This document shows positions 1-28,666 of a stretch of DNA of 30,084 nt, piece by piece (positions within the stretch are counted from its first letter, which is position 1; each line of letters begins with the position of its first letter). The notes under the pieces were generated by a model, which was given only the letters and a program-made list of their open reading frames with translations, did no database searches and was not told where the DNA came from. The stretch lies in the IMG/VR virus record IMGVR_UViG_2908572912_000002; one strand, 5' to 3'. The position numbers and the translations under genes were made by a program. The stretch comes from a virus (Duplodnaviria; Heunggongvirae; Uroviricota; Caudoviricetes).

Positions 1-90
1 TCACTCTGCCAGATGGCGCAATGCCATCTGGTATCACTTAAAGGTATTAAAAACAACTTTTTGTCTTTTTACCTTCCCGTTTCGCTCAAG

Positions 91-265
91 TTAGTATAAA
101 AAAGTTGAATGTGAAACGGTAAAAACAATTAATATCAACGGCTTATAATTGATTCAGTCTAAAAAATAGACTGCATAATGCTACAAAACACAACATATCC
201 AGTCACTATGAATCAACCACTTAGATGGTATTAGTGACCTGTAACAGAGCATTAGCGCAAGGTGA
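91..265. other. attR: attR: lambda-type att core (ttagtataaaaaag at 91-104) with chromosomal B' flank (cgtttcgctcaag, 78-90) and phage P arm; left prophage boundary
   Basis: 15-bp core repeated at 28740-28754 (14/15 identical); flank matches E. coli attB B' arm as recalled; P-arm-like AT-rich sequence follows. Confidence 0.8.
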
Positions 266-329
266 TTTTTTTGTCTTCTTGCGCTAATTTTTTGTCAACA
301 CACTGGGTTAGCTGAATTTACAACCACGC

Positions 330-551
330 TCAGTATCTCGATAAGCGCAGAGAAATGATGCAGTGGTGGGCGGATTGGCTTGATGAAAAAGTGGAGTAAT
401 CCGGACCGTACTTCTTTATCCAGGCATAAAGGCTGTGGGTGGTGATATCGAGACGTGTTGCAACGCTGGCAACAGAATAACCGCGATCAATAACCTGTTT
501 GACTGCTTCAGTTTTAAACTCTTCGGGATAACGCTTACCGCTCATGGGCAC
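330..551 (-). pseudogene. IS3-family transposase OrfA, N-terminal HTH fragment (homology ends after ~50 aa)
   Basis: Translation MPMSGKRYPEEFKTEAVKQVIDRGYSVASVATRLDITTHSLYAWIKKYGPD resembles IS3-family OrfA HTH, then non-homologous tail; SD-like aagagagg upstream. Confidence 0.6.
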
Positions 552-611
552 CTCTCTTTAAGCCATCTTAAATGACTCTGAGGTGTCTGTTAAACCCGTG
601 GCGATTCAAAA

Positions 612-1061
612 CTGCGTGTTACGTTCGCCCTGGACTGTTGCGATCGTGAAGCCATAGACTGGGCCGCAAGCACGGGAGGTTACGATAAAGCGACAGTGCA
701 GGATGTCATGTTAGGAGCGATAGAAAAACGCTTTGGCGATAAAGTACCGGAACAGTCCATCCAGTGGCTGACAGATAACGGTTCAGCGTATAGAGCGCAT
801 GAAACACGGCAGTTCGCCAGAGAGTTGAATCTGGAGCCCTGCACAACGGCAATCAGCAGTCCTCAGAGTAATGGAATGGCAGAAAGGTTCGTGAAAACGA
901 TGAAGGAAGACTACATCGCGTTCATGCCGAAACCGAATGTAAGAACGGCATTGCATAATCTTGCAGTGGCGATCGAACATTACAATGAAAACCATCCGCA
1001 CAGTGCGCTGGGTTATCGCTCTCCGCGAGAATATCGACGTCAGCGGGTAACGTTAACTTAA
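612..1061 (+). pseudogene. IS2-like transposase OrfB, C-terminal integrase-core (rve/DDE) fragment lacking its 5' two-thirds
   Basis: Frame open from ~612 with no start: [42 protein letters not shown]...[10 protein letters not shown]...[11 protein letters not shown]...[14 protein letters not shown], resembling the C-terminus of IS2 InsD as recalled. Confidence 0.65.
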
Positions 1062-1102
1062 GATACACCCCCTGTCTGGAAATAAGGGGGCAAGAACAAT
1101 GA

Positions 1103-1855
1103 TCAGATTCCCTGGTGAGTAAGAATTTTACTTTCTGAACTCCTCTGAGAGTATTGACTTGGAGAAACACCAAAATAACGTCTAAATACATAAGTAAAGT
1201 ATGAGACACTGGCATAACCACAGACCTTAGCTACTTTACTAATAGGATAACAACGAGTGCTGAGTAAATATTCAGCCATTTGCATCCTCTCATCAAGTAT
1301 GATCTTACTGAATGATACCCCCTCTTCTTTCAATTTCATCTTTAGTAAACTTTCGCTGAGATATAATCTTGATGATATATCCTTAAGACGCCATGGTGCA
1401 GATAAATCCGTATGAATAATCGTTTTAACTTTAGCCCCTGTGCTTTTCAAACATCCAAACAGAAATACTCCAAATTGTTTTTCAGAAGAAAATGCAGAGA
1501 GACATGTAAAAGCAATAGACTCATCAAAAATTTCTATGTATTCAGCACAGTGATTAGCCCAACTAATTAATCCTTTAATTAAACTGAAGTCAGCAAAGTT
1601 TATTTTTAAATAAGATGGATATTCCCTACAATCAGAAATATCCCTTAAGTTATTAGCTTTCAAATAGCGACTAATAAACTCAGCGCCAAAATCCGCCACT
1701 ATCACTCTTTCAGGATATGTCAGGAAAAAATCTCTAGAGCTAGAGTCGACAAGTACAGATGAACCTCTCTCCAGAAACACACTCTCTTTTCCGAAATAAA
1801 CATCAAAGGACTCCAAAATCAATATAACTGAACATGTAGTTGCCATATCATCCAC
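1103..1855 (-). CDS. AraC-family transcriptional regulator, AppY-like (paralog of 10804-11544)
   Basis: 250-aa ORF; C-terminal AraC HTH (ISSRLYLSESLLKMKLKEEGVSFSKIIL...VAKVCGYASVSYFTYVFRRYFGVSPSQY); low-GC coding sequence. Confidence 0.8.
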   Translation of the reverse strand: MDDMATTCSVILILESFDVYFGKESVFLERGSSVLVDSSSRDFFLTYPERVIVADFGAEFISRYLKANNLRDISDCREYPSYLKINFADFSLIKGLISWANHCAEYIEIFDESIAFTCLSAFSSEKQFGVFLFGCLKSTGAKVKTIIHTDLSAPWRLKDISSRLYLSESLLKMKLKEEGVSFSKIILDERMQMAEYLLSTRCYPISKVAKVCGYASVSYFTYVFRRYFGVSPSQYSQRSSESKILTHQGI

Positions 1856-2067
1856 CCAATTTAACTGAAACCTGGATGAAGTATATGCATATAAAGTTCA
1901 CTTTGCCAAACTTCAGTATAAAAAACCACATAAAAAATAGGGTGTGATAAAAAATACCGTAACAATAAAGCAAAGGATTATAAAATCCGTTACAGTTACA
2001 AATGATACTCAAGAAACAATTCCTTAGGAAAAACTTATTTACAGCCAATAAGGGTAATGACTCGAAC

Positions 2068-2571
2068 TTATTGATAGTGTTTTATGTTCAGATAATGCCC
2101 GATGACTTTGTCATGCAGCTCCACCGATTTTGAGAACGACAGCGACTTCCGTCCCAGCCGTGCCAGGTGCTGCCTCAGATTCAGGTTATGCTGCTCAATT
2201 CGCTGCGTATATCGCTTGCTGATTACGTGCAGCTTTCCCTTCAGGCGGGATTCATACAGCGGCCAGCCATCCGTCATCCATATCACCACGTCAAAGGGTG
2301 ACAGCAGGCTCATAAGATGCCCCAGCGTCGCCATAGTGCGTTCACCGAATACGTGCGCAACAACCGTCTTCCGGAGCCTGTCATACGCGTAAAACAGCCA
2401 GCGCTGGCGCGATTTAGCCCCGACATAGCCCCACTGTTCGTCCATTTCCGCGCAGACGATGACGTCACTGCCCGGCTGTATGCGCGAGGTTACCGACTGC
2501 GGCCTGAGTTTTTTAAGTGACGTAAAATCGTGTTGAGGCCAACGCCCATAATGCGGGCAGTTGCCCGGCAT
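2068..2571 (-). CDS. insB: IS1 InsB (transposase frame, normally expressed as InsAB' by -1 frameshift)
   Basis: 167-aa ORF overlapping insA 3' end in -1 frame; ...[31 protein letters not shown]... Confidence 0.9.
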
Positions 2572-2765
2572 CCAACGCCATTCATGGCCATATCAATGAT
2601 TTTCTGGTGCGTACCGGGTTGAGAAGCGGTGTAAGTGAACTGCAGTTGCCATGTTTTACGGCAGTGAGAGCAGAGATAGCGCTGATGTCCGGCGGTGCTT
2701 TTGCCGTTACGCACCACCCCGTCAGTAGCTGAACAGGAGGGACAGCTGATAGAAACAGAAGCCAC
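2490..2765 (-). CDS. insA: IS1 InsA (transposition inhibitor / N-terminal part of InsAB')
   Basis: 91-aa translation [43 protein letters not shown]... matches IS1 InsA as recalled. Confidence 0.95.
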
Positions 2766-3453
2766 TGGAGCACCTCAAAAACACCATCATACACTAAATC
2801 AGTAAGTTGGCAGCATCACCAGCCTTCTTGAGGCTACCACCTGTTTTCAGGTGTCATTCAGACGTGATTTGCCCCAGATTGGGAAAGCACGCTTTTTTCT
2901 CAGCTATCGTCCTCTTATTTTGCCGTTACATTTCTTTTTGCACTCTAATGATTAATTTACAATAATAATATCGGTAATTATTGAGTAATAATAAATTGAT
3001 TATTGCAAATGTAATTTAATTCCATCTTCGCGTTATATTCCAATCTTTAATCTCCGCATGGAACAAGTTGCATGCGTGACTATATTAAGACAACTTATAA
3101 CCACCAAAACATTTGCTTTGCAAGCAAAAACAGTGACCATTGACTCTAAGAAAATTCCGATCTATTGTTAGGGTCATCAAAGTTACTTAACAGTATTCCG
3201 AAATGAAAATACAAAGCAAGCTAATTGTCTTATTAAACATTATTATTGCATTTATATTATTTGAGCTTTTAGCTCAAAAATTTGGTTTGAGTACATTATT
3301 TTAAAGCAAGATAAACAATATCGGGCACTCTAGTTTTTATAATTAACAATTAAACGTCCATGAAATGTTATTTACTTTTCTTCGCTATTGTCATATCTTA
3401 ATATAGTGGCTTACGCCACTCTACTTTCATCACATTTTGTACGTTTATGTACT

Positions 3454-3486
3454 CGCCATGAAGCTCTTTCATGGCGATTTTTTATT
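3454..3486 (+). terminator. Rho-independent terminator (9-bp stem cgccatgaa/ttcatggcg, 5-nt loop, then attttttatt)
   Basis: Perfect inverted repeat 3454-3476 followed by T-tract; lies in an ORF-poor AT-rich region. Confidence 0.6.
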
Positions 3487-3569
3487 CTTAATCCAAGAAC
3501 ATACTCCCTACCTATAGCAAAATCACTTTTTTAACAAAAGAATAACGTATTTAGGTAATCATTACGAAT

Positions 3570-3749
3570 TTACCCTATAGGTGCTACTGGCCATTCAATA
3601 TCCGGTGCAGTTGTTGTATTAACACGGTTCAGCAACACCCGATACTTCTTCCAGGCTTCCAGCAACGAAGTTTCTTCCTCCGTTGCGATTTCCAGCTCAA
3701 CAACAGTCTGAACGTACCAGGAACAGCCTCCTTCAGGGCTTGAAGGATA
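3570..3749 (-). pseudogene. tfa: tail fiber assembly protein (Tfa) 3' remnant, in frame directly after the stf stop codon
   Basis: Minus-strand translation after the stf TGA: ...[42 protein letters not shown], the conserved C-terminal motif of Tfa proteins (TfaR-like); no start codon. Confidence 0.55.
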
Positions 3750-6700
3750 TCAATGTTCGCTTCCTGTTAACTGCCCGACAAGTGCAACCAGTTCGCTTAC
3801 CTGATTTTCCAGAGTGCTGATCCGGGTGCCTGCTGTTGCCAGATTTTTACGTAGCGTTATGTTTTCCTCTTCCAGCGCGGTAACGCGACCATCTGTTTCA
3901 CGGGCGACCTGAACAAGTAACCCCGTCACGGCGGCGTAGTCAACATTCAGATAACGTGTTTCTTCACGTAATTCATTGCCGTCAACCGTTGGTCCCTGCA
4001 ACTCTTCACCGTAATGAGTAAACGATCCCACAGCTTCTGGTATCGCCTCCATTACTTCCTGTGCAATAACGCCAGCATAAGGCATCCCGTTTTCCCTGAG
4101 CGTGTAGGTGTATCCGTTCATTTTACGGATTGCTTTCGTCGCGTCGCTGATAACGAGAATATCGTCTTTAAGGTCGCGGTCTGATGACTGATTCAGCGTT
4201 GTGCAATTAATAGCGCCATTTACATCAAACAACTGGCCTGCTGACGTTTTTTGCGCATAAAACAGATACGCAGCAGACGTTCCAACCTCAAAAACGTTTT
4301 GTCGATCACTTGATCCCCATACTTTTGCGGCAAATGATAGTTCTGTATTACCTAAGTTCTGTAAAACAAAACGATTTCCAGTCCCTGTTTGTTTTGTAAG
4401 AGTTAAATCAACAGTTGAGTTAACCTCATCCTTGTTGATAGTGAGCGCCTGCGCTTTAGCCCCGTTAACAGCACCTGTTTTGAGTTGAACCGCGCCGTCA
4501 TTACCATTTAACAGTATCTCAGCTCCGCTAAAGAAATTTTTTAGCGACAGCATCTTACTTACGCCGACTGATGAACCCAACGCCCACGCGAGAGAATTAC
4601 CGGTGCTATCAAACCCACGTACAAAGCAATCCATTTTGCTATAGTCTGACGTGCTTCCAAGGACATCAATTCGCCCTCCGCCAGATTTTACCGGGTTAGA
4701 TGTGGTTAATGACCTGACAGCAAGATCGGTAGATGAATTGAGATCGTCTACTGTTAGTAATTTCTTCCATTCCTGCGTCGTTCCATTTTCAATTGTTCTT
4801 CCCCAAAAACCGGAATTGCGGCCTCCGAACTGCACAGCATAATTTTTACTAAATTGAACATGAATGCCGCCAAGAACCATAGAACCTGCCGGGCCGTTTG
4901 TACTGCCTGCAATTGGTATAAATTTATTAATGTTATCAGTATGCTGCGTGTTCCAGTCTCGTCCTGTTTTTGTAAGCAGTCCTAATGTCGTGTCGAGCGC
5001 TTCGGTTAAAGTAAGGTTTTTAAATTTAACTGCGCTACTTTCGCCAAGACTTAAGTTGTTTCGCGCATCTTCTACTGTTGTCGCACCTGTACCTCCTTGC
5101 CCAACAGCTAATGGCAACCAGCCAGTGCCATTATGACAACCCCACAAACCAGATTTGGAAACCTGTAAGCGTGGTGCGCCTGAAGAATACGTAGAATATA
5201 CGTAAGTTGTTTCTTTTCCCTCTTCAACCCTTTCTGTTGATACATCTCTCTTCCATTCAGACCAGGTACCGCTTCCTCCTTCATATATTCGTCTATAAGT
5301 AATTCCCGGATTATTATAAGGGTAGTACACCTGAACGCAGGAAGAAGCAGTGTTGGCTCTCGTTTGGAGCACTATTAAAGCGCCCGCCAGACCGATTGGG
5401 TAATTTAATTCTTCTGTTGCGTAAGCGCTCGTTGGTTGTTGATAGAAACCAGAATATTCACCGGTAAGGGTGTTTAGGTCAGTATTAGCAAGGCCAGCTT
5501 TTTGCTCATACATTACCCGCAAGTTCGCACGTGCTTGCTCGATAGTTCTTCCACCAGTACCGCCCTGGGCTAAACCTAACGGAGACCATTGTCCAGAAGA
5601 AGAATCATAAACCCCCCAACTCCCGTTAGTATGGATTTCAAAGAAACGATCACCAGTTGGACCATACATACGAGTTGTTGATTCATTTTGACCAAAGCGG
5701 CTTAATTCATCTCTGCGGGTATGACGTATCCATTGCGGGCCAGAACTTTGGCTGTAAATGTACGAATACAATGATTTTGTATCTGAACCAACAAATAGAC
5801 CGGAATATCTTTTTGTTGACACTTCTGATCTAACTATATAACCAGAAATAAGATTATCACCGGCACTAGACGCTACTGATGGATAACCTTTCGCTGAGAT
5901 GTAAATCCTGACAAATCCAATATAACCTGATGGCTCAACAGAGATATCAGTGCAGGTCATGGCAACTTCACCAAGACCGATATTATCGCCAACAATTACT
6001 TGCGCCTGGTTGCGATAATTAAGTGCGTCCGCCGCAGATTTCGCCGCGTTTGTTTCACTGGATTTAGCATTAGTTTCGCTGGCTTTAGCGTTGGTTTCGC
6101 TGCTCTTTGCTGCTGCCTCGCTATTTTTCGCGTTGGTTTCTGATTTTTTGGCTGCTGTCGCGGAGTTTGCTGATGCAGTTTGTGAGTCTGCTGCCGCCTG
6201 TGCGCTGTTATCTGCATTCGTCTCAGACGTTTTTGCGGCCTTCGCGGAATTTCCTGCCGCCGTTGCCGAGGAAGCTGCACTACTGGCACTTGATGATGCG
6301 TTCGTTTCTGATGATTTCGCTGCCTCTTTTGAGGCCGACGCATCCCGGGCTGAGGTGGCAGCTTCTGACGCTTTCGTGGTCGCGGTGGATGCAGAAGTGG
6401 CTGCTGATTGTTGTGACGCTGCCGCATTCGTTTCTGACGTTTTCGCCGCACCGGCACTGGTAGCCGCCGCGCTTTTTGAGGACTCTGCAGCGGCAGCACT
6501 TTTTGAGGCTTCAGTGGCCTTTGTTGATGCCGTTCCTGCGCTGGAAGACGCTGACTGAGCCGACGAAGCGGCCTGTCCGGCTGACGTGCTGGCTGCACGT
6601 GCTGAATCTGCAGCATCAGTCGCATGGGTTGCCGCCTCACGGGCTGATGTGCTGGCATCGCTGGCTGATTTCTTCGCGGCTGCCGTGTTCTGTGCCACCG

Positions 6701-7061
6701 CGGACGCGTTACGCGCCACCTCTTCCACCATCAGTTCAAAACGGCGCAGAGCCTCCGGACGGGCATCATCCTCCGTCATGGCACCGAGAAAATCATTCAG
6801 CGTACCGGGTCGGGAATCTTCATACACGGTGATGGTCCCGGCATGTGACGGCGGGAATCCTTCCACCAACAGAATAACGCTGTACTGACCGTACTCAACG
6901 TCCATGCTGTAACGCCCGGCTTCATCCGGATTTTCTGAGGCCAGCGTGTTCACCACCACCGTGGTGCTGTTACGTTTTGCTTTCAGCTGGATTGTGCAGT
7001 TCTGTACCGGTTTTCCTGTGCCGTCTTTCAGTACACCTGAAATCTTTACTGCCATATTCAC
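3750..7061 (-). CDS. stf: side tail fiber protein (Stf), chimeric: lambda-like N-terminal anchor, Ala/Ser/Thr-rich repetitive stalk, divergent distal domain with possible C-terminal intramolecular chaperone-like segment
   Basis: 1103-aa ORF; N-terminus MAVKISGVLKDGTGKPVQNCTIQLKA... as in lambda Stf; long SETNA-type repeats; C-terminal ...NGYTYTLRENG...ALEEENITLRKNL... Confidence 0.85.
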   Translation of the reverse strand: MNMAVKISGVLKDGTGKPVQNCTIQLKAKRNSTTVVVNTLASENPDEAGRYSMDVEYGQYSVILLVEGFPPSHAGTITVYEDSRPGTLNDFLGAMTEDDARPEALRRFELMVEEVARNASAVAQNTAAAKKSASDASTSAREAATHATDAADSARAASTSAGQAASSAQSASSSAGTASTKATEASKSAAAAESSKSAAATSAGAAKTSETNAAASQQSAATSASTATTKASEAATSARDASASKEAAKSSETNASSSASSAASSATAAGNSAKAAKTSETNADNSAQAAADSQTASANSATAAKKSETNAKNSEAAAKSSETNAKASETNAKSSETNAAKSAADALNYRNQAQVIVGDNIGLGEVAMTCTDISVEPSGYIGFVRIYISAKGYPSVASSAGDNLISGYIVRSEVSTKRYSGLFVGSDTKSLYSYIYSQSSGPQWIRHTRRDELSRFGQNESTTRMYGPTGDRFFEIHTNGSWGVYDSSSGQWSPLGLAQGGTGGRTIEQARANLRVMYEQKAGLANTDLNTLTGEYSGFYQQPTSAYATEELNYPIGLAGALIVLQTRANTASSCVQVYYPYNNPGITYRRIYEGGSGTWSEWKRDVSTERVEEGKETTYVYSTYSSGAPRLQVSKSGLWGCHNGTGWLPLAVGQGGTGATTVEDARNNLSLGESSAVKFKNLTLTEALDTTLGLLTKTGRDWNTQHTDNINKFIPIAGSTNGPAGSMVLGGIHVQFSKNYAVQFGGRNSGFWGRTIENGTTQEWKKLLTVDDLNSSTDLAVRSLTTSNPVKSGGGRIDVLGSTSDYSKMDCFVRGFDSTGNSLAWALGSSVGVSKMLSLKNFFSGAEILLNGNDGAVQLKTGAVNGAKAQALTINKDEVNSTVDLTLTKQTGTGNRFVLQNLGNTELSFAAKVWGSSDRQNVFEVGTSAAYLFYAQKTSAGQLFDVNGAINCTTLNQSSDRDLKDDILVISDATKAIRKMNGYTYTLRENGMPYAGVIAQEVMEAIPEAVGSFTHYGEELQGPTVDGNELREETRYLNVDYAAVTGLLVQVARETDGRVTALEEENITLRKNLATAGTRISTLENQVSELVALVGQLTGSEH
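6000..6700. repeat. Degenerate tandem repeats encoding the Ala/Ser/Thr-rich (KSSETNA-like) stalk of Stf
   Basis: Reiterated gcgttggtttc/gctg motifs; many spurious overlapping ORFs in all frames in the six-frame track. Confidence 0.7.
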
Positions 7062-7119
7062 CCCACAAAAAAGCCCGCCTGAACCGGCGGGCTGTCATAA
7101 CACTGTGTTACCTGGCTAA

Positions 7120-7659
7120 TCAGAATTTATAACCGACACCCACGATGAAACTGTTGGTACGCCAGTCACCGCTGCCGGAGCCTTCATAAGCGACGTCAAC
7201 GGCCACGGATTCGGTCGGGTTAAACTGCACGCCAGCTCCCCACGCCAGAGACGTGTTGCTGTGGCGACCGTCATCACTTCCGGTCAGCACATCGTGCGTT
7301 TTCCCCTTGTTGTCAGTTACGCGGATATAATCCCCGGAGAAAGTCGAAACACGGCTGTAAGCCATACCCGCCATCGCATACGCGCTGAACCATTCATTCA
7401 CGCGCACAGACGGCCCCGCCATCACGCTGAACCAGCGATTACGCACGGAATCCTCATGCCAGCGGGTATCGCTGTAATGCGTTTTTTGCTCATCTTCAGC
7501 GTTGGCATAACTGAATGACGTAATCAGCCCCAGCGTGTCCGTAAACTCATAACGGTATTTCACGTTAATCCCGTTCAGATTATCGCTGCCGGAAGCGTTC
7601 GTACGGGCATGAAGATACCCTGCGCTCAGCGTGGCCTGCTGCTCAGACGCCGCAGTTCT
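7120..7659 (-). pseudogene. lom: lom-like outer membrane protein (Ail/Lom/PagC family), 5'-truncated (no start codon or intact signal peptide)
   Basis: Frame open upstream of the listed GTG (7563) to 7659: ...ASEQQATLSAGYLHARTNASGSDNLNGINVKYRYEFTDTLG...WRTNSFIVGVGYKF; C-terminal beta-barrel motifs as in lambda Lom. Confidence 0.75.
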
Positions 7660-7859
7660 TCAACCTCCCGGCGCAGCTTTTCGTTCTCAATTTCAGCATC
7701 CCTTTCGGCATACCATTTTATGACGGCGGCAGAGTCATAAAGCACCTCATTACCCTTGCCACCGCCTCGCAGAACGGGCATTCCCTGTTCCTGCCAGTTC
7801 TGAATGGTACGGATACTCGCACCGAAAATGTCAGCCAGCTGCTTTTTGTTGACTTCCAT
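7626..7859 (-). pseudogene. nu1: terminase small subunit Nu1, truncated after ~70 aa (DNA-binding domain only)
   Basis: MEVNKKQLADIFGASIRTIQNWQEQGMPVLRGGGKGNEVLYDSAAVIKWYAERDAEIENEKLRREVEELR matches lambda Nu1 N-terminus, then RLSSRPR* from out-of-frame lom sequence. Confidence 0.9.
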
Positions 7860-7860
7860 T

Positions 7861-8075
7861 GCTCATTCCACGGACAAAAACAGAGAAAGGAAACGACAGA
7901 GGCCAAAAAGCTCGTTTTCAGCACCTGTCGTTTCCTTTCTTTTCAGGGGGTATTTTAAATAAAAACATTAAGTTACGACGAAGAAGAACGGAAATGCCTT
8001 AAACCGGAAAATTTTCATAAATAGCGAAAACCCGCGAGGTCGCCGCCCCGTAACCTGTCGGATCGCCGGAAAGGA
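7861..8075 (-). other. cos: cos site (cosB with Nu1-binding region, cosN cohesive-end sequence aggtcgccgccc at 8037-8048, cosQ side)
   Basis: Reverse complement of the lambda left end GGGCGGCGACCTCGCGGGTTTTCGCTATTTATGAAAATTTTCCGG... present, contiguous with lambda right-end-like ...cgacaggttacg. Confidence 0.85.
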
Positions 8076-8247
8076 CCCGCAAAATGATAATAATTATCAT
8101 CTGCATGTCACAACGTGCATCTACGCCATCAAACCACGTCAAATAATCAATTATGACGCAGGTATCATATTAATTGATCTGCATCAACTTAACGTAAAAA
8201 CAACTTCAGACAATACAAATCAGCGACACTAAATACGGGACAACCTC

Positions 8248-9439: not shown

Positions 9440-9907
9440 TCATCGAAGGCATTGCGTCCTGATGTATTCCTGAAGCGTTCTCAGTGCTGTTTGGTCGCGG
9501 ATAATTCCGTCCCGGATACCGAGAACGTTTCGTCCAGCAACTGGAGAGAGTTCGACGGTGGCATCATTGCCCATGCCGGAGGCGCTGGAGGTTTCGGCTG
9601 AGGATGGCACAGGGCATTTTCCTTTGACGAGCACCCGACCACCATTATCAAGCTTGCGCCGAAGAGCATCATTTTCAGCTTTCGCATCAGCTAACTCCTT
9701 CGTGTATTTATCATCGAGTGCATCAGCATCACGCTGGCGCTGCTGCATGTCAGTAATGGTGGCGTTCGCCTTCTCCAGTTCACTGGCCTTGTTATCGCGC
9801 TGTTCTTTGTAGGCGATTGCATTATCACGGTAATGATTAACAGCCCATGACAGGCAGACGATGATGCAGATAACCAGAGCGGAGATAATCGCGGTTACCC
9901 TGCTCAT
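9440..9907 (-). CDS. Rz: i-spanin Rz (RzpD-like), N-terminal TM anchor, coiled-coil periplasmic domain
   Basis: ORF 9440-9919; likely start [26 protein letters not shown]... overlapping endolysin stop; downstream of endolysin. Confidence 0.8.
9481..9687 (-). CDS. Rz1: o-spanin Rz1 (lipoprotein, Pro-rich) embedded in the +1 frame of Rz
   Basis: 68-aa ORF within Rz on same strand; lipobox MVVGCSS; proline-rich [16 protein letters not shown]. Confidence 0.75.
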
Positions 9908-10401
9908 TGTTGCCCCCACAAACAGACCTCACGCTCAATCTCACGACGAGTCATCAGGCCTTTCCATTGCTTACCGCCAGCGTATGCCCAGCGACGTAGC
10001 TGGTCACATGCGCCCTTGATATCGCCCTGGTTTATTTTGCGAAGAAGAGTAGATGTTCTGAAATTGCCTGCGCCCACGTTATAGACGAACGAGTAAAGAG
10101 CGCCGCGCGTTGTTTCCGGTATATCGACTTTGATGTACGGGTTAATTTGTCTGGCTACCGTGGCAAGGTCTTTATTCAGGAGGGCTTTGCATTCTGCTTC
10201 GGTATACGTTTTACCGGGAATGATGTCTTTTCCTGTATGCCCGTGACATACAGTCCATACGCCAACGATATCTTTGTATGGTATGTAGCTGACACCTTCC
10301 AGACCATCGTTACCACTTGGGCCAGTGATTAACACTGATGCTATAGCAATTGCTCCGCCACCAATAGCAGCAGCAACGGCTTTTCGTAATGATGGAGGCA
10401 T
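9904..10401 (-). CDS. R: SAR endolysin (T4-lysozyme-like glycoside hydrolase family 24; RrrD/R21-like)
   Basis: 165-aa ORF; N-terminal Gly/Ala-rich SAR segment [20 protein letters not shown]; ...[21 protein letters not shown]...[20 protein letters not shown]... resembles E. coli RrrD. Confidence 0.9.
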
Positions 10402-10616
10402 TATTCACCTCTCGCAGCCTTGCGCTTATCTTCTTTAATCTTGAAATAAAGGTTTGTCAGGTACGTCAGCAGGCCAAATACCAAGCTACCCAGCACACCT
10501 ATTGCTGCCCACTGTGAGGGCGTGACTTTATCGAGCAGCTGTAAAAACCAGTAGCCAGCACTGCCTGCGGAGGTGCCGTAGGCAATGCCCGTTGTTAACT
10601 TATCCATGGATTTCAT
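10401..10616 (-). CDS. S: pinholin (S21/EssD-like) with dual-start motif (Met1-Lys-Ser-Met4)
   Basis: 71-aa [74 protein letters not shown]; two TMDs; immediately upstream of endolysin. Confidence 0.9.
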
Positions 10617-10803: not shown

Positions 10804-11544
10804 TTACATCATGTCTTTTTCTAAAAAAAATCTTGATGAATATTGATGGGGAGGAACACCAAAATACCTTCTGAAAACACTTACAAAATATGACGTGTTT
10901 TCATAACCGCATATCTCAGCAACTTTTCCAACAGAATATAAATTGTAGCTTAATAACCTTTCCGCCATCACCATTCGCTCTTCAAGAATTAACTTACTAA
11001 ATGATAAGCCTTCGTGCTTTAATTTTCTTTTTAACAGACTTTCACTCAGATACAGTCTTGAAGATATATCACAAAGTCTCCATGCTGCAGATATATCCGT
11101 GTGAATAATAGCCTTAACTTTACTTCCTAAACTATTAAGACATCCAAATAAAAAACTTTGCACTATTTTCTCTGAAGATAAGATAGCAAGACATGCAAGT
11201 GATATTTGATTTCTAACAAAATCCACAGTTCTGCCATCACAATTCAAGCATGCAATCAAGTTCTTTAACAATGAAAAATCTTCACATTCCACCATCAAGT
11301 ATGCCGGATAAAACCTTCTTACAGAAAAAGGTGAGAGTGTGTTGCTTTTAAAGAAATCATTAACTGTTTTTTCTTCAACATCTACGATCATTACATGATC
11401 TATATTTGATGAAAAAAAATCTTTTAAATTGTAATCAATGAGAACAGCACTTCCTTTTTTAAACAAAATATCTTCTTTACCAATTCGGACATCAAACGAG
11501 TTCAACACCAAAATGATAGAACATATGTATAGCATATTATCCAC
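10804..11544 (-). CDS. AraC-family transcriptional regulator, AppY-like (paralog of 1103-1855)
   Basis: 246-aa ORF; C-terminal HTH ISSRLYLSESLLKRKLKHEGLSFSKLIL...VGKVAEICGYENTSYFVSVFRRYFGVPPHQY; low-GC; AT-rich upstream region. Confidence 0.8.
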   Translation of the reverse strand: MDNMLYICSIILVLNSFDVRIGKEDILFKKGSAVLIDYNLKDFFSSNIDHVMIVDVEEKTVNDFFKSNTLSPFSVRRFYPAYLMVECEDFSLLKNLIACLNCDGRTVDFVRNQISLACLAILSSEKIVQSFLFGCLNSLGSKVKAIIHTDISAAWRLCDISSRLYLSESLLKRKLKHEGLSFSKLILEERMVMAERLLSYNLYSVGKVAEICGYENTSYFVSVFRRYFGVPPHQYSSRFFLEKDMM

Positions 11545-11886: not shown

Positions 11887-12846
11887 TTAATTTACCATCA
11901 GTCTTAGAGCCAGTTCGTCCGGATAGGGATCGAAGTAATTCTGTGTAAGCAAGTAATCATTAGGATACTCACCCAGATAATGCTTCAGCAGAGTCAACGG
12001 CGCAAGAAGAGGTAATGTGCCAGAACGATAGTTAAGTATAACCTCGCTCAACTCTTTACGCTGGCGTGTACTTAAGTAGTTACTAAAATACCCCTGTATA
12101 TGCATCAGCACATTCGTGTGATTTTTACGTGATGCAGGTTTTCTGAGAATCGCCATCAGCTTATCACGATACACCTCAAAGTATGATTCAAGGTCCGCCC
12201 ACTCGTGTATTGCAGCCACAAATGGTCCCATATCTTTATAGCCTGCCTGACTATGCGCCAACAACTGAAGCTTATAACGACTATGAAAAGCTAATAACTC
12301 TCTTCTTGATAATTTCTCCTTGTAAAGGTGATTGAGCTCATGCAAAGCAAAAACTCTTTCAACAAAATTCTCACGAAGCACTGGATCATGTAATCGCCCA
12401 TCCTCTTCAACCGGTAGCCAGGAAAACTTTTCCATCAAAGTGCTCGTAAATAGTCCCACTCCATCTTTACGACCTCGATTACCATTTTCATCATAGACAC
12501 GCACGCGCTCCATGCCACAGCTGGGAGATTTAGCACAAACCACAAACCCCGATACATCCTTTAATTTGTCCATATAAGAACGACTAAACTCTGTCATTCT
12601 CTCTGTCACATCCTCATTCTGGTCGTGGCTGAAACACATCCGTATATTTCCTTGCGTCGAGCGCACAAGACGTAGAGCAGGACGCGGAACTGGCAGCCCT
12701 ATAGCCATTTCCGGACATACTGGTCTGAATGTTACCCATTCCACTAATTTGTCCATTAAAAAGTCAGCTCTTTTGTGACCACCATCAAAACGAACAGCAG
12801 AACCGGCCAAACAACCGCTGATTCCAATCACAGGTTTTTTTATCAT
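11887..12846 (-). CDS. two-domain DUF523 (TudS-like, putative 4Fe-4S thiouracil desulfidase fold) plus DUF1722 (YbgA-like) protein
   Basis: 319-aa ORF; N-terminal VIGISGCLAG...VRFDGG...RPVCPEMAIGLPVPRP...CAKSPSCGMERV (Cys pattern of DUF523); C-terminal YbgA-like helical region. Confidence 0.65.
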   Translation of the reverse strand: MIKKPVIGISGCLAGSAVRFDGGHKRADFLMDKLVEWVTFRPVCPEMAIGLPVPRPALRLVRSTQGNIRMCFSHDQNEDVTERMTEFSRSYMDKLKDVSGFVVCAKSPSCGMERVRVYDENGNRGRKDGVGLFTSTLMEKFSWLPVEEDGRLHDPVLRENFVERVFALHELNHLYKEKLSRRELLAFHSRYKLQLLAHSQAGYKDMGPFVAAIHEWADLESYFEVYRDKLMAILRKPASRKNHTNVLMHIQGYFSNYLSTRQRKELSEVILNYRSGTLPLLAPLTLLKHYLGEYPNDYLLTQNYFDPYPDELALRLMVN

Positions 12847-13038
12847 ATTCTCCCCCTTGACTAATTCATTAACACATAAACTGTGTAGTGCACGGAATAA
12901 ATTGCCTTTCTGGCGTCATCACTGACAATTTTTCTGTTATGGACTATTCCTAATATAGTATGAAAGTTCTTTAAGTGATCGGTCGTAATCATCTATCTTT
13001 CATACTTACTCTCAACTATCAAAAGTACAGGATTTATT

Positions 13039-13563
13039 ATGAAGTTATGGCCTGTGTTGACTGGCATTGCACTCTCTTTCACTCTTATAGCATGTAAGGC
13101 CCCGACACCACCTAAAGGTGTGCAGCCGATTACAAATTTTGACGCCAACCGCTACCTCGGAAAATGGTATGAAATAGCTCGCCTCGAGAACCGGTTCGAA
13201 CGTGGTCTGGAACAGGTCAGCGCTACTTATGGAAAACGGAACGACGGAGGGATTCGTGTACTTAACCGTGGATACGATCCAACGAAAAATAAATGGAGCG
13301 AGAGCGAAGGTAAAGCATACTTTACTGGAGATACTAAAACTGCAGCATTGAAGGTTTCGTTTTTTGGCCCCTTCTATGGTGGCTATAATGTAATCAAACT
13401 GGATGATGAGTATAAGTATGCTCTTGTCAGTGGTCCGAACAGAGAATACCTATGGATTCTGGCAAGGACCCCAACTATTCCAGATAAAGTAAAAGCAGAC
13501 TATGTGCGAACCGCTCAAAAGTTGGGATTCAATGTCAATGAATTATTATGGGTTAAACAATAA
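13039..13563 (+). CDS. outer-membrane lipocalin lipoprotein (Blc-like)
   Basis: 174-aa ORF; lipobox LIAC; NFDANRYLGKWYEIARLENRFERGLE...GKAYFTG...ALKVSFFGPFYGGYNVI...YLWILARTP closely resembles E. coli Blc. Confidence 0.85.
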   Translation: MKLWPVLTGIALSFTLIACKAPTPPKGVQPITNFDANRYLGKWYEIARLENRFERGLEQVSATYGKRNDGGIRVLNRGYDPTKNKWSESEGKAYFTGDTKTAALKVSFFGPFYGGYNVIKLDDEYKYALVSGPNREYLWILARTPTIPDKVKADYVRTAQKLGFNVNELLWVKQ

Positions 13564-13718: not shown

Positions 13719-14111
13719 TTATTTCGAACAATCAGCATCCATCTCCAATCGGAGATCCAACACCATCAGCATACCCTCCACTACGCCCTCAGCTTTCTGA
13801 AGCATCCTGCCAACCCAACAATCAGATCGCCCATGCTTACGTGCAAGCGCCATAAAAGTCATGCCGCCGACATAATAGTCCACCAATAAATCATGCAAAT
13901 CGCTGTTGTTCTTTTTCAGACGGGCCATGCACCCGCAAATGATCATCGCGTCATCGTCACAACATTGTGGGCGAGATTTTACTTTTGAAGGAATTAATCC
14001 CTTAAAACCGGCGGCAATGGACGACCAGGTCACATCTTCATGATTATTAGCCGCCCACGCTCCCCAACGCTCAAGAACCATCTGAATATCACGCATCAAC
14101 TTACTCCACAA
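13719..14111 (-). CDS. Q: late-gene antiterminator Q (phage 82/21/DLP12 QuuD type)
   Basis: ORF 130 aa; from internal Met: [62 protein letters not shown]... resembles QuuD; sits between rusA and lysis genes. Confidence 0.85.
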
Positions 14112-16622: not shown

Positions 16623-17117
16623 TCATTTCCAATTGCAAGACTGTGAAATTTTTTCCACAACCTTATCAATCTCAGACAAGTCAAACTCAACTACTTGCAT
16701 AGTTGATCCATAAGGTTCAAACCCAAAAATAGCTTTTTTATGCTTAGCCAAGGTCTTTATAAATTGTATTGGTTGTGGAGCAAATGCAGAATCACCGCCT
16801 TCCCCACCTCCCCAAACACTCTTGACCGGCTTTCCGCCATCTAACCGCACTGTAATTCTTGGGTTGTCCGAACCCATATAATCATTGAATGATAAATAGG
16901 CATCTGTTTTGTTATCACTACAACGCAACACCAGTGAAGTTGCACGATCAGTACCTGCTTTGTTATATGAATCTGGTGATAAATTAAGAGCCACAAAGTC
17001 AGTCTGGTCAGTCATTTTATTTATCTCAGACTTTGTTATCCACGGCCCTAACTTCTCTACACCAGCATTTGCTGTAAACGAGGCACTTATAACAAAGGCT
17101 AAAATAAATTTTCTCAT
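16623..17117 (-). CDS. hypothetical secreted/periplasmic protein with N-terminal signal peptide
   Basis: 164-aa ORF MRKFILAFVISASFTANAGV...; low-GC; lies in a foreign insert between truncated ren and ninB. Confidence 0.6.
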   Translation of the reverse strand: MRKFILAFVISASFTANAGVEKLGPWITKSEINKMTDQTDFVALNLSPDSYNKAGTDRATSLVLRCSDNKTDAYLSFNDYMGSDNPRITVRLDGGKPVKSVWGGGEGGDSAFAPQPIQFIKTLAKHKKAIFGFEPYGSTMQVVEFDLSEIDKVVEKISQSCNWK

Positions 17118-17263: not shown

Positions 17264-17437
17264 TTAAACAAACGTTCGCCAGACCTTACCATCAATGACC
17301 AGGATTCCTGCCCGCGTCATTTTTGCCGCAGCCTTATTTATGCTGGTTAATGTCACACCTGTTGTCGCAGCAACGTCCGGCGCACAGAAGCTCTTGTGCG
17401 TCTCCAGATAATGAATAATTGCCTCTTTGCCCGTCAT
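17264..17437 (-). pseudogene. ren: ren, truncated after ~53 aa
   Basis: Hand translation MTGKEAIIHYLETHKSFCAPDVAATTGVTLTSINKAAAKMTRAGILVIDGKVWRTFV*; matches lambda Ren N-terminus then ends; start overlaps P stop. Confidence 0.7.
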
Positions 17438-18135
17438 ACAGTTGCTCCTTTCAGTCCGAACTTCGCTTTGATTTCTGCGATCTTCGCCAGAGCCTGAGCC
17501 CGGTTAAGTGGTCTACCGCCCATGACAGGAAGTTGTTTTACTGGTTCAGGTATAGCCTCACCACGGTTAATTCGTGCGGTCATACAGGACAGTTCATCGG
17601 CAGCCTTGCGCCGTAATTCCGCGTCAGTCAACGCATTGGCCCGCATGTTCTGATACAGGTTGGTAACCAGCCAGTAGTGCGCGTTTGATTTCCACGGATA
17701 AGACTCTGCATCCGGATACAGCCCGCGCTTCCGGCAATACTCGTAAACCATATCAACCAGCTCGCTGGCGTTTGGCAGCCCGGCGGTAACGGATGCTTCT
17801 TCCCGGCACCAGGCGACAAACTGCCCGGGTGATGGCAGGAATGGTCGATTCTGCCGACGGGCTACGCGCATTCCTGCGTTAACCTGTTCCATTGTGGTGA
17901 TCCCGTTTTCCCGGAAAGCCAGAACCCACTGGCGGCGGATTTCGTTCAGTTCGTTCTGGTCACGGTTAGCCAGACTCGCCGGGAAAGTTGCCAGTAACTG
18001 GCTGAACACACCGTTGATGATCTGCGCTACCTGCTGTACCTGCGGCTTTTCGTCGTACTGTTCCGGCATGTTGTTGGCGATCCGACGCATCTGCTCACGG
18101 TCAAAGTTAACCATCTGTGCGGCGATGTTTTTCAT
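17434..18135 (-). CDS. P: replication protein P (DnaB helicase loader)
   Basis: 233-aa MKNIAAQMVNFDREQMRRIANNMPEQYDEKPQVQQVAQIINGVFSQLLATFPASLANRDQNELNEIRRQWVLAFRENG... matches lambda P. Confidence 0.95.
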   Translation of the reverse strand: MKNIAAQMVNFDREQMRRIANNMPEQYDEKPQVQQVAQIINGVFSQLLATFPASLANRDQNELNEIRRQWVLAFRENGITTMEQVNAGMRVARRQNRPFLPSPGQFVAWCREEASVTAGLPNASELVDMVYEYCRKRGLYPDAESYPWKSNAHYWLVTNLYQNMRANALTDAELRRKAADELSCMTARINRGEAIPEPVKQLPVMGGRPLNRAQALAKIAEIKAKFGLKGATV

Positions 18136-19031
18136 AGATCCACCCCGTAAATCCAGTCTGTGTTTGTCAGGTCGAGTTTTGGTTTGCTGGCTGTCACGAC
18201 TGCCTGTTGCTTGTTACGGTTGATTTCGAGCTGGGTCCACTTGTCGCGGAGTTTGGCCGGACTAAGCACGTTACCGGACCAGAAGTTGTCCTGGCATGCC
18301 CAGCGGAACAGCACGCACATGTCGCGGTGGTTACGTCCGTCACGTTCACGCATCAGGCGGATATCGTTAGCCCACCCTGCAAAATTCGGTTTTCTGGCTG
18401 ATGGCGCGATGGTCTTCACCATGTCAAACATCCACTCTGCGGCGGTCAGGTCTTCTGCTGTCCCCCACTTGCTGCCGCTCTGAATTGCAGCATCCGGTTT
18501 CACCACAGAAAGATCGTTTTCTGGCTGGTCAGAGGATTCGCCAGAATTCTCTGACGAATAATCTTTTCTTTTTTCTTTTGTAATAGTGTCTTTTGTGTCC
18601 CTCTGTTTTGAGGGATAGCAATCCCCCAATTTGAGGGATGTTTTATCCCTCGTTTTAGGGGATTTTCCCTCGTTTTGAGGGATACACCATTCTGAGATGT
18701 TTTTATTTGGTCCAAACATGCCGCCTTGCTGCTTGATAATATTCATTCTGACGAGTTCTAACTTGGCTTCATTGCACCGTTTGACGGGTAACTTTGTAAT
18801 CTCGCTAAGTTGAGAATCGGTGATTCTGTCCATTGGTTTATTCCACCCATAGGTTTTACGCAGAATGGCAAGCAGCACTTTAAACTGTCGCTTGGTCAGA
18901 TCTGCGCCCGAATAAGCCTCAAGCAGCATATTTGATAGTCTGGCGTAACCATCATCGAGATCTGCCACATTACGCTCCTGTCCGGCAAAGTTACCTCTGC
19001 CGAAGTTGAGTATTTTTGCTGTATTTGTCAT
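18132..19031 (-). CDS. O: replication initiator O
   Basis: 299-aa MTNTAKILNFGRGNFAGQERNVADLDDGYARLSNMLLEAYSGADLTKRQFKVLLAILRKTYGWNKPMDRITDSQ... matches lambda O; contains ori iterons. Confidence 0.95.
   Translation of the reverse strand: MTNTAKILNFGRGNFAGQERNVADLDDGYARLSNMLLEAYSGADLTKRQFKVLLAILRKTYGWNKPMDRITDSQLSEITKLPVKRCNEAKLELVRMNIIKQQGGMFGPNKNISEWCIPQNEGKSPKTRDKTSLKLGDCYPSKQRDTKDTITKEKRKDYSSENSGESSDQPENDLSVVKPDAAIQSGSKWGTAEDLTAAEWMFDMVKTIAPSARKPNFAGWANDIRLMRERDGRNHRDMCVLFRWACQDNFWSGNVLSPAKLRDKWTQLEINRNKQQAVVTASKPKLDLTNTDWIYGVDL
18556..18684. repeat. ori: ori-lambda: four ~19-bp O-binding iterons (tccctc...gagggat) plus adjacent AT-rich unwinding region, inside O
   Basis: Iterons at ~18598-18617, 18621-18639, 18644-18662, 18666-18684; AT-rich tract 18556-18596. 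Confidence 0.85.
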
Positions 19032-19476: not shown

Positions 19477-20831
<1,355 letters not shown>

Positions 20832-23015: not shown

Positions 23016-23180
23016 ATGCAATATGCCATTGCAGGGTGGCCTGTTGCTGGCTGCCCTTCCGAATCTTTACTTGAACGAATCACCCGTAAATTACGTGACG
23101 GATGGAAACGCCTTATCGACATACTTAATCAGCCAGGAGTCCCAAAAAATGGATCAAACACTTATGGCTATCCAGACTAA
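23016..23180 (+). CDS. cIII: CIII (FtsH inhibitor protecting CII)
   Basis: Hand translation [54 protein letters not shown] (54 aa). Confidence 0.85.
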   Translation: MQYAIAGWPVAGCPSESLLERITRKLRDGWKRLIDILNQPGVPKNGSNTYGYPD

Positions 23181-23313
23181 ATTCACTATCGCCACTTTTA
23201 TTGGCGATGAAAAGATGTTTCGTGAGGCCGTCGACGCTTATAAAAAATGGATATTAATACTGAAACTGAGATCAAGCAAAAGCATTCACTACCCCCCTTC
23301 CCTGTTTTTCTAA
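23149..23313 (+). CDS. kil: Kil (host cell-division inhibitor)
   Basis: In-frame portion of ORF 23023-23313: [54 protein letters not shown]; start choice uncertain. Confidence 0.7.
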
Positions 23314-23663
23314 TCAGCCCGGCATTTCGCGGACGATATTTTCACAGCTATTTCAGGAGTTCAGCCATGAACGCTTATTACATTCAGGATCGTCTTGAGG
23401 CTCAGAGCTGGGCGCGTCACTACCAGCAGATCGCCCGTGAAGAGAAAGAGGCAGAACTGGCAGACGACATGGAAAAAGGCCTGCCCCAGCACCTGTTTGA
23501 ATCGCTATGCATCGATCATTTGCAACGCCACGGGGCCAGCAAAAAAGCCATTACCCGTGCGTTTGATGACGATGTTGAGTTTCAGGAGCGCATGGCAGAA
23601 CACATCCGGTACATGGTTGAAACCATTGCTCACCATCAGGTTGATATTGATTCAGAGGTATAA
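23247..23663 (+). CDS. gam: Gam (RecBCD inhibitor), long form
   Basis: 138-aa [78 protein letters not shown]... Confidence 0.95.
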
Positions 23664-23668
23664 AACGG

Positions 23669-24454
23669 ATGAGTACAGCACTCGCAACGCTGGCTGGGAA
23701 GCTGGCTGAACGTGTCGGCATGGATTCTGTCGACCCACAGGAACTGATCACCACTCTTCGCCAGACGGCATTTAAAGGTGATGCCAGCGATGCGCAGTTC
23801 ATCGCATTGTTGATCGTCGCCAACCAGTACGGCCTTAATCCGTGGACGAAAGAAATTTACGCCTTCCCTGATAAGCAGAACGGCATCGTTCCGGTGGTGG
23901 GCGTTGATGGCTGGTCCCGTATCATCAATGAAAACCAGCAGTTTGATGGCATGGACTTTGAGCAGGACAATGAATCCTGCACATGCCGGATTTACCGCAA
24001 GGACCGTAATCATCCGATCTGCGTTACCGAGTGGATGGATGAATGCCGCCGCGAACCATTCAAAACCCGCGAAGGCAGAGAAATCACGGGGCCGTGGCAG
24101 TCGCATCCCAAACGGATGTTACGTCATAAAGCCATGATTCAGTGTGCCCGTCTGGCCTTCGGATTTGCTGGTATCTATGACAAGGATGAAGCCGAGCGCA
24201 TTGTCGAAAATACCGCATACACTGCAGAACGTCAGCCGGAACGCGACATCACTCCGGTTAACGATGAAACCATGCAGGAGATTAACACTCTGCTGATTGC
24301 CCTGGATAAAACATGGGATGACGACTTATTGCCGCTCTGTTCCCAGATATTTCGCCGCGACATTCGCGCATCGTCAGAACTGACACAGGCCGAAGCAGTG
24401 AAAGCTCTTGGATTCCTGAAACAGAAAGCCTCTGAGCAGAAGGTGGCTGCATGA
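23669..24454 (+). CDS. bet: Bet (Red-beta single-strand annealing protein)
   Basis: 261-aa [84 protein letters not shown]... Confidence 0.95.
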
Positions 24455-25131
24455 CACCGGACATTATCCTGCAGCGTACCGGGATCGACGTGAGAGCTGT
24501 CGAACAGGGAGATGATGCGTGGAACAAATTACGACTCGGCGTCATCACGGCTTCAGAAGTTCACAATGTGATAGCAAAACCCCGCTCCGGTAAAAAGTGG
24601 CCTGACATGAAAATGTCCTACTTTCACACCCTGCTGGCTGAGATTTGCACCGGTGTGGCTCCGGAAGTTAACGCTAAGGCGCTGGCCTGGGGAAAACAGT
24701 ACGAGAATGACGCCAGAGCCCTGTTTGAGTTTACTTCCGGCGTGAATGTTACTGAATCCCCGATCATCTATCGCGACGAAAGTATGCGCACCGCCTGCTC
24801 TCCCGATGGTTTATGCAGTGACGGCAACGGCCTTGAGCTGAAATGCCCGTTTACCTCCCGGGATTTCATGAAGTTCCGGCTCGGTGGTTTCGAGGCCATA
24901 AAGTCGGCTTACATGGCCCAGGTGCAGTACAGCATGTGGGTGACACGAAAAGATGCCTGGTACTTTGCCAACTATGACCCACGAATGAAGCGTGAAGGCC
25001 TGCATTATGTCGTGGTTGAGCGGGATGAAAATTACATGGCGAGTTTTGACGAGATGGTGCCGGAGTTCATCGAAAAAATGGACGAGGCACTGGCTGAAAT
25101 TGGTTTTGTATTTGGGGAACAATGGCGATGA
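24451..25131 (+). CDS. exo: Exo (Red-alpha 5'-3' exonuclease)
   Basis: 226-aa [68 protein letters not shown]... Confidence 0.95.
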
Positions 25132-27399: not shown

Positions 27400-27618
27400 A
27401 TGTACTTGACACTTCAGGAGTGGAACGCTCGCCAGCGACGCCCAAGAAGCCTTGAAACAGTTCGTCGATGGGTGCGCGAATGCAGGATATTCCCTCCTCC
27501 GGTTAAGGATGGAAGAGAATATCTGTTCCACGAATCAGCGGTAAAGGTTGACTTAAATCGACCAGTAACAGGTAGCCTTTTGAAGAGGATCAGAAATGGG
27601 AAGAAGGCGAAGTCATGA
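27400..27618 (+). CDS. xis: excisionase Xis
   Basis: 72-aa MYLTLQEWNARQRRPRSLETVRRWVRECRIFPPPVKDGREYLFHESAVKVDLNRPVTGSLLKRIRNGKKAKS. Confidence 0.97.
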   Translation: MYLTLQEWNARQRRPRSLETVRRWVRECRIFPPPVKDGREYLFHESAVKVDLNRPVTGSLLKRIRNGKKAKS

Positions 27619-28666
27619 GCGCCGGGATTTACCCCCTAACCTTTATATAAGAAACAATGGATATTACTGCTACAGGGACCCAAGGACGGGTAAAGAGTTT
27701 GGATTAGGCAGAGACAGGCGAATCGCAATCACTGAAGCCATACAGGCCAACATTGAGTTATTTTCAGGACACAAACACAAGCCTCTGACAGCGAGAATCA
27801 ACAGTGATAATTCCGTTACGTTACATTCATGGCTTGATCGCTACGAAAAAATCCTGGCCAGCAGAGGAATCAAGCAGAAGACACTCATAAATTACATGAG
27901 CAAAATTAAAGCAATAAGGAGGGGGCTGCCTGATGCTCCACTTGAAGACATCACCACAAAAGAAATTGCGGCAATGCTCAATGGATACATAGACGAGGGC
28001 AAGGCGGCGTCAGCCAAGTTAATCAGATCAACACTGAGCGATGCATTCCGAGAGGCAATAGCTGAAGGCCATATAACAACAAACCCTGTCGCTGCCACTC
28101 GCGCAGCAAAATCAGAGGTAAGGAGATCAAGACTTACGGCTGACGAATACCTGAAAATTTATCAAGCAGCAGAATCATCACCATGTTGGCTCAGACTTGC
28201 AATGGAACTGGCTGTTGTTACCGGGCAACGAGTTGGTGATTTATGCGAAATGAAGTGGTCTGATATCGTAGATGGATATCTTTATGTCGAGCAAAGCAAA
28301 ACAGGCGTAAAAATTGCCATCCCAACAACATTGCATGTTGATGCTCTCGGGATATCAATGAAGGAAACACTTGATAAATGCAAAGAGATTCTTGGCGGAG
28401 AAACCATAATTGCATCTACTCGTCGTGAACCGCTTTCATCCGGCACAGTATCAAGGTATTTTATGCGCGCACGAAAAGCATCAGGTCTTTCCTTCGAAGG
28501 GGATCCGCCTACCTTTCACGAGTTGCGCAGTTTGTCTGCAAGACTCTATGAGAAGCAGATAAGCGATAAGTTTGCTCAACATCTTCTCGGGCATAAGTCG
28601 GACACCATGGCATCACAGTATCGTGATGACAGAGGCAGGGAGTGGGACAAAATTGAAATCAAATAA
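27596..28666 (+). CDS. int: tyrosine integrase Int (lambda type), apparently intact
   Basis: 356-aa MGRRRSHERRDLPPNLYIRNNGYYCYRDPRTGKEFGLGRDRRIAITEAIQANIELFSGHKHKPLTARINSDNSVTLHSWLDRYEKILASRGIKQKTL...; full length with C-terminal catalytic region. Confidence 0.97.
   Translation: MGRRRSHERRDLPPNLYIRNNGYYCYRDPRTGKEFGLGRDRRIAITEAIQANIELFSGHKHKPLTARINSDNSVTLHSWLDRYEKILASRGIKQKTLINYMSKIKAIRRGLPDAPLEDITTKEIAAMLNGYIDEGKAASAKLIRSTLSDAFREAIAEGHITTNPVAATRAAKSEVRRSRLTADEYLKIYQAAESSPCWLRLAMELAVVTGQRVGDLCEMKWSDIVDGYLYVEQSKTGVKIAIPTTLHVDALGISMKETLDKCKEILGGETIIASTRREPLSSGTVSRYFMRARKASGLSFEGDPPTFHELRSLSARLYEKQISDKFAQHLLGHKSDTMASQYRDDRGREWDKIEIK

Follow-up and report, generated by a model that had tools for sequence, protein, structure and literature searches.

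A nu1–lom deletion junction in a defective lambda-like prophage at the lambda attachment site of Escherichia coli

The DNA analysed here, referred to as the window, is a stretch of 30,084 nucleotides (IMG/VR record IMGVR_UViG_2908572912_000002) which contains a lambda-like imm434 prophage between ybhB and ybhC. On the minus strand of this prophage, a deletion has joined a truncated nu1 gene (nu1') to an out-of-frame remnant of lom (lom') at positions 7649–7651. It is very probable that this junction is the scar of a spontaneous illegitimate, i.e. homology-independent, deletion, by which codon 70/71 of nu1 would have been fused to codon 23/24 of lom at the three nucleotides GCC, with the loss of the rest of nu1 and of all genes from A through J, altogether ~18.6 kb as measured on lambda. 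Being confined to a narrow lineage, the junction is strain-private, and the deletion that produced it was probably private to the strain, recent and mediated by microhomology. Events of this kind are well known, and the one described here adds a further instance, an ordinary step in the decay of a prophage.

Limits and gene content of the prophage

The two att cores, which both lie inside the window, bracket the whole element, giving it a size of ~28.65 kb. The attR core (ACTTTTTTATACTAA; 91–105, minus strand) has one mismatch to the lambda core and is followed by a lambda-type P arm that extends to position ~300, and the attL core (28740–28754, minus strand) is an exact match and adjoins ybhC. 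With the ybhB side on one flank and ybhC on the other, the element occupies the lambda attachment site of E. coli. Compared with attL, the attR core starts with A instead of G, and the adjoining bases of the P arm deviate from those of lambda, but neither attR nor attL has a change in the 7-bp overlap TTTATAC.

Searches with lambda proteins (tblastn) and Pfam scans revealed a lambdoid gene order, i.e. int-xis-red-N-cI-cro-O-P-Q-lysis-cos-nu1. With every lambda protein used as a query, tblastn gave no match anywhere in the window for A, W, B, C, D, E, FI, FII, Z, U and V, nor for G, T, H, M, L, K, I and J. For comparison, the WP2-W18-CRE-03 prophage, which is found at the same locus, is essentially complete and reads nohD-A-W-B-C-D-E-FI-FII-Z-U-V-G-T-H-M-L-K-I-J-lom-stf-tfa. 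By its att boundaries, its gene order and the loss of its virion genes, all of them features of the sequence, the element is thus classified as a defective (cryptic) lambdoid prophage. The initial annotation of this DNA, made from the letters and the open reading frames, had called the Nu1 frame lambda-like and compared the missing interval with lambda; the phage is an imm434-type mosaic related to lambda, and not lambda itself.

The deletion junction

When the region was compared base by base with the parental sequences, identity was found to switch abruptly on both sides of the trinucleotide GCC at 7649–7651, a microhomology common to the parental lom and nu1. These three nucleotides are the sole overlap of two flanks that are each 100% identical to their counterparts, i.e. 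positions 7400–7651 to lom of several other E. coli prophages and positions 7649–7900 to nohD/nu1. Window positions 7649–8048 correspond to lambda 401–1. Alignment to lambda, which the initial annotation had proposed as a way to define the breakpoints and any microhomology, places the proximal breakpoint at lambda nucleotide 401/402 in nu1 and the distal one at ~19,030 in lom. The interval lost between them, which includes the 3' part of nu1, is the ~18.6 kb given above (~19 kb for nu1 through J in the initial annotation); in the undeleted sibling prophage of WP2-W18-CRE-03, the corresponding interval measures 19,978 bp, one IS3 included. Neither A–J genes elsewhere in the prophage nor a full-length Nu1 frame, which had been named beforehand as the observations that would speak against such a deletion, turned up, and no other finding contradicted the deletion.

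The junction has the characteristics of an illegitimate deletion, i.e. its parental sequences are non-homologous, they overlap by 3 nt and neither an IS nor a site-specific recombination site is present. Specifically, no IS end, recombinase site (FRT/lox), cassette or marker was found at the junction. An 8-mer (TGGCCTGC) that occurs near both parental breakpoints was rejected as the site of the exchange, being located a few bases off the crossover and not significant (P ~0.07).

The two gene remnants

On one side of the junction, the chimeric nu1' ORF (7626–7859, minus strand) consists of Nu1 residues 1–70 followed by seven out-of-frame lom codons and a stop codon at 7626–7628. Read from 7859, it gives MEVNKKQLADIFGASIRTIQNWQEQGMPVLRGGGKGNEVLYDSAAVIKWYAERDAEIENEKLRREVEELR and then RLSSRPR, resulting in a chimera of 77 aa that begins with MEVNKK and has a Nu1 part ending in REVEELR. 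The portion identical to lambda Nu1 comprises exactly 70 codons (7859 to 7650), which makes precise the earlier estimate of about 70 lambda-like codons running into RLSSRPR and a stop. Nu1' covers positions 1–73 of the 164 positions of the Pfam profile Phage_Nu1 (PF07471), and its winged helix-turn-helix DNA-binding domain is complete, as it aligns to 1J9I (1–68) and 6HN7. With the ORF ending seven codons past the junction, the central oligomerisation domain and the C-terminal domain that binds gpA (TerL) are missing (for these domain roles of gpNu1, see PMC9026076).

On the other side, the lom' remnant (7120–7651, minus strand) keeps the whole region coding for the mature Ail/Lom barrel, but has lost the first 68 nt of the gene and therefore its start codon and signal peptide, exactly the parts that the initial annotation had found to be lacking. 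The parental Lom has the N-terminus MRKVCAAILSAAICLAVSGAPAWA, followed by SEQQ, and the first base of lom' is the last one of parental codon 23. Its frame, which differs from that of nu1', lacks a start and is closely preceded by a stop codon; it is open from SEQQATLSAGY to the C-terminal YKF and is near-identical to the intact Lom of AR_0128. Use of the first in-frame start within lom' would yield only positions 53–199 of the PF06316 profile. Both remnants are likely to be non-functional, Nu1' because it keeps only the DNA-binding domain without the parts for oligomerisation and gpA binding, and Lom' because a product without start codon and signal peptide would not be exported.

Retained modules

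The cos region (7879–8078, minus strand) is found directly beyond the start of nu1'. It includes the R3 sequence of cosB at 7984–7999, the cohesive-end bases of cosN at 8037–8048 (lambda 1–12) and cosQ at 8072–8078, with the coordinates of R3 following PMC9026076. No difference from lambda exists in cosQ and cosN, whereas cosB carries a few substitutions. At window position 7995 (lambda bp 54), there is a G-to-A change inside R3 of cosB (bp 50–65), just outside the segment contacted by TerS (bp 55–63), which is also present in the CP183146-type sibling, but not in lambda, WP2 or TD225. The initial annotation had stated that the deletion precisely spares cos, lom' and stf, and this applies to cos, which is intact, and to stf, which is a full-length ORF, whereas lom is truncated and thus not spared.

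The lysis cassette (9440–10616, minus strand) consists of holin S (10401–10616), endolysin R (9904–10401) and Rz (9440–9919), with an Rz1-like lipoprotein ORF (9481–9687) embedded in Rz. Pfam scans identified a P21-type holin, lysozyme, Rz, antiterminator Q, RusA and YbcO, with the late antiterminator Q encoded at 13719–14111 (minus strand). The replication genes P and O (17434–19031, minus strand) include the ori iterons at ~18537–18717, in an ori region that is 98.9% identical to lambda. In the immunity region (19477–20430), cro (~19477–19692, minus strand) is followed by a 434-type cI gene (19798–20430, plus strand), whose product is a 434-type repressor with an intact S24 peptidase domain. 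The genes cIII, kil, gam, bet and exo are located at 23016–25131 (plus strand), and xis and int at 27400–28666 (plus strand), the latter two being 98.6–99.2% identical to lambda. Relative to lambda, tblastn showed int (356/356), xis, ea8.5, ea22, exo, bet, gam, kil, cIII and ea10, as well as N, cII, O, P and Rz, to be full length. Hence the genes for integration, recombination, immunity, replication and lysis, all of which had been listed as retained, are full length by comparison with lambda or with Pfam profiles, and by the integrity of these ORFs they look complete.

In the left arm, the side tail fibre gene stf (3750–7061, minus strand) is an intact ORF for a protein of 1101–1103 aa that has a fibre domain at its N-terminus and, at its C-terminus, a Peptidase_S74 domain, which is an intramolecular chaperone. 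Downstream of stf, tfa is a remnant (3576–3713, minus strand) consisting of its C-terminal 46 codons. As tfa has been cut to these last codons beside an S74-bearing Stf, this type of Stf may not need Tfa. A terminator-like hairpin (7072–7093, minus strand) is situated between lom and stf. The left arm also holds IS scars as well as an IS1 copy (InsA/InsB; 2053–2820, minus strand), which takes the place of ~550 bp found in related remnants and thereby suggests an IS1-associated adjacent deletion; IS1 at 2053–2820 is also present in the drafts GCA_052629225.1 and GCA_032715185.1.

Occurrence of the junction

In megablast searches, no contiguous match across the junction was obtained in 5,426 complete E. 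coli genomes, the INPHARED phages or the PLSDB plasmids. Likewise, the exact junction 30-mer was absent from the GTDB species representatives, IMG/VR and the JGI metagenome contigs, an exact-product look-up had no record of the 77-aa chimeric Nu1' product, and a literature search gave no match for the sample accessions. Two NCBI drafts have a left arm identical to that of the window, in one of them at 100% over window positions 1–7140, and both stop inside lom. It was the truncated lom' product that led to Logan contig SRR6799402_329 (904 nt) of sequencing run SRR6799402, which is 100% identical to window 6777–7680 and spans the junction. This run may represent the same isolate as the source of the window, in which case the reads are confirmed without a second strain having the junction.

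Could the junction be a sequencing or assembly artefact, i.e. a chimeric join, or a deletion made by engineering? Its absence from every collection searched, whether of complete genomes, phages, plasmids, species representatives, viruses or metagenomes, would be in line with such an origin, as would the fact that lom is where drafts of the same lineage end. However, the independent short-read assembly from SRR6799402 spans the junction at 100% identity, which argues that it did not arise in assembly. In addition, an overlap of 3 nt is too short for graph assemblers, which do not join unrelated sequences on such a basis, and the junction carries neither a recombinase scar nor a marker; engineering is rejected because such scar sequences are absent. 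An artefactual or engineered origin is therefore very improbable.

Origin of the deletion

The two arms of the prophage have different closest relatives. From 7649 onwards, the right arm is 99.4–99.7% identical to the WP2-W18-CRE-03 prophage. Between 2821 and ~7000, the left arm shares ~99.6% identity with a heavily degraded remnant that is widespread at attLambda (TD225-C4, VE-V10-F, APEC O78 and others) and has a smaller A'–'J deletion, which falls wholly inside the interval missing from the window. The left arm is itself a mosaic, with lom' changing allele from ~7150; it is ~90% identical to lom of the widespread remnant and, over 7400–7651, 100% identical to the allele of an AR_0128 prophage located at yodB. 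No undeleted parent carrying the stf and lom alleles of the window was present in the collections, where the best match reached 98.4%.

Since the A'–'J deletion of the widespread remnant is nested in the missing interval, a two-step history is conceivable, in which an earlier deletion (e.g. the A'–'J deletion that many strains have at this locus) would have taken most head and tail genes and a second one of ~2.4 kb, from nu1 to lom, the remaining ones. Remnants of the TD225-C4/VE-V10-F/APEC O78 type have indeed the same left arm, including IS scars, the AraC gene, tfa' and stf. Yet lom' of the window (7120–7651) belongs to a different allele, ~10% apart from theirs, and the early region is complete in the window, whereas the remnant lineage carries further deletions. 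Taken together, the allele mismatch and the complete early region mean that direct descent from the widespread A'–'J remnant, which is disfavoured, would need extra recombination, and we regard nested loss as unlikely. The different relatives of the two arms could also reflect a deletion between two prophages, for which a new lambda-like phage would have been located in tandem with an old attLambda remnant, with the resident lom becoming fused to the incoming nu1. In this case, however, the lom allele at the junction should be that of the resident remnant, which it is not. Moreover, a tandem intermediate was not seen, and ordinary homologous exchange near the start of stf gives the same mosaic more simply. 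A deletion between prophages thus seems quite improbable. Exchange as such is familiar, with lambdoid phages swapping stf and cos-region DNA with defective prophages (PMC3945230).

Overall, a single deletion in a mosaic phage is favoured over both the nested and the inter-prophage histories; that the loss took only one step is not demonstrable. Such a single deletion would have been a recent event, generated either by slipped mispairing or by microhomology end joining.

Relation to other defective prophages

For the cryptic prophages of K-12, a missing head–tail block beside a retained cos, Nu1 homologue, lysis cassette and some fibre genes is the classic condition. In DLP12 and Qin of K-12, just as in the window, the lysis cassette, DUF1398/DUF3950 genes, cos and a Nu1 homologue adjoin remnants of tail-fibre genes, an adjacency that in all three is due to the deletion of head and tail genes. 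DLP12 reads nohD-aaaD'(A')-tfaD-...-appY and Qin reads nohA-stfQ-tfaQ, and the position of appY beyond the fibre genes of DLP12 resembles that of an AppY-like AraC gene in the window. DLP12 and Qin keep a full-length Nu1 homologue (nohD/nohA) and have lost most early functions, whereas in the window nu1 is truncated at codon 70, lom holds the distal breakpoint, the element is located at attLambda and the early, replication, immunity and integration genes look intact.

Among related prophages of E. coli, at least six other independent head–tail deletion alleles were found, including three at attLambda. These include A'–'J at attLambda (TD225-C4, VE-V10-F and APEC O78), nu1/A'–'stf (CP183146), A'–'lom, which occurs twice (E94 and 52F4), nu1'–'V'–'lom (LR-58-1) and W/B'–'lom (CM142774). 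All of them have in common with the window that cos and the lysis genes are left untouched, but their breakpoints all differ from those described here, and the 7649–7651 junction is found in none. Several of these deletions end in the 5' part of lom, an observation that is biased, as the query that retrieved most of them contained lom. Along with these alleles, of which there are at least six, the deletion in the window illustrates how often the head–tail block goes while cos and the lysis genes stay.

The lambdoid Sp prophages of E. coli O157 Sakai that are defective in head, tail or terminase genes can still excise and replicate, and some of them are packaged by the proteins of co-resident prophages with near-identical cos (Asadulghani et al. 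2009, PMC2669165). The Sakai prophages have been tested experimentally and are mostly of near-full genome length, whereas the element in the window has ~59% of the length of lambda and is known from its sequence. Similarities also exist to cos-type PICIs (PMC9026076), which are integrated, have int and replication genes of their own as well as cos, and lack capsid genes. PICIs are, however, only ~10–15 kb in size, do not have the phage cosB and encode Rpp, which redirects the TerS of the helper (PMC9026076). Phage lysis or immunity modules are not part of such islands. The element in the window measures ~28.65 kb, has cosB R sequences of the lambda type as well as complete sets of lambdoid early and lysis genes, and encodes nothing resembling Rpp; it is not a PICI or satellite, but plainly a phage that has undergone deletion.

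Expected behaviour of the element

Judged by its gene content, the prophage cannot build heads or tails or cut cos. Upon SOS induction, the 434-type repressor would be cleaved and the element would be expected to excise and replicate. Transcription of the late operon would then run through S, R and Rz/Rz1 and across cos into nu1', lom' and stf, and the likely outcome would be cell lysis without the release of infectious particles.

Lambda DNA is packaged within a size range of roughly 78–105% of genome length. At ~59% of lambda, the element is below and its dimer is above this range, and therefore its rescue as a unit by a helper phage is unlikely. In principle, the remnant might not be inert, i.e. 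in the presence of a helper of lambda specificity it might interfere with packaging, be mobilised or seed the packaging of host DNA on the bio side. What makes such an activity conceivable is the intact cos of lambda specificity ~8 kb from attR, a stand-alone Nu1 DNA-binding domain encoded in the late operon and excision, replication and lysis functions that appear to be complete; interference could then be due to Nu1' either occupying cosB or pairing with the TerS of the helper. Nevertheless, we consider any of these activities to be very improbable.

For annotation, the element should be recorded as a defective prophage, and not as an inducible, transmissible phage, with nu1' and lom' being pseudogenes. 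It provides a clean and apparently young case of the first step of prophage domestication, in which morphogenesis is lost and the rest remains intact. Since induction would probably still kill the host and yield no progeny, such a prophage is expected to be short-lived, which fits the rarity of the junction.

Accessory genes

In the nin region, positions 16623–17117 and 17264–17437 differ from both lambda and the WP2 sibling; one ORF in this region has a weak Pfam match to VasI (type VI secretion), which is barely over the cut-off, and a ren-like ORF has 57 aa, compared with 96 in lambda. Between Q and the lysis genes, cargo at 11887–13563 encodes a YbgA-family protein (2-thiouracil desulfurase plus DUF1722) and a Blc-like lipocalin, the latter from the opposite strand; both are common to siblings with intact head genes. 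Finally, the prophage carries two genes for AppY-like regulators of the AraC family, at 1103–1855 and 10804–11544, whose products share 53% identity, compared with 28% to AppY of K-12. The former (minus strand), a moron in the left arm, is located beyond the tail-fibre genes, like appY in DLP12, and the latter lies in the late operon in the Q-to-holin interval, where it is intact in the window and frameshifted in the WP2-W18-CRE-03 sibling.
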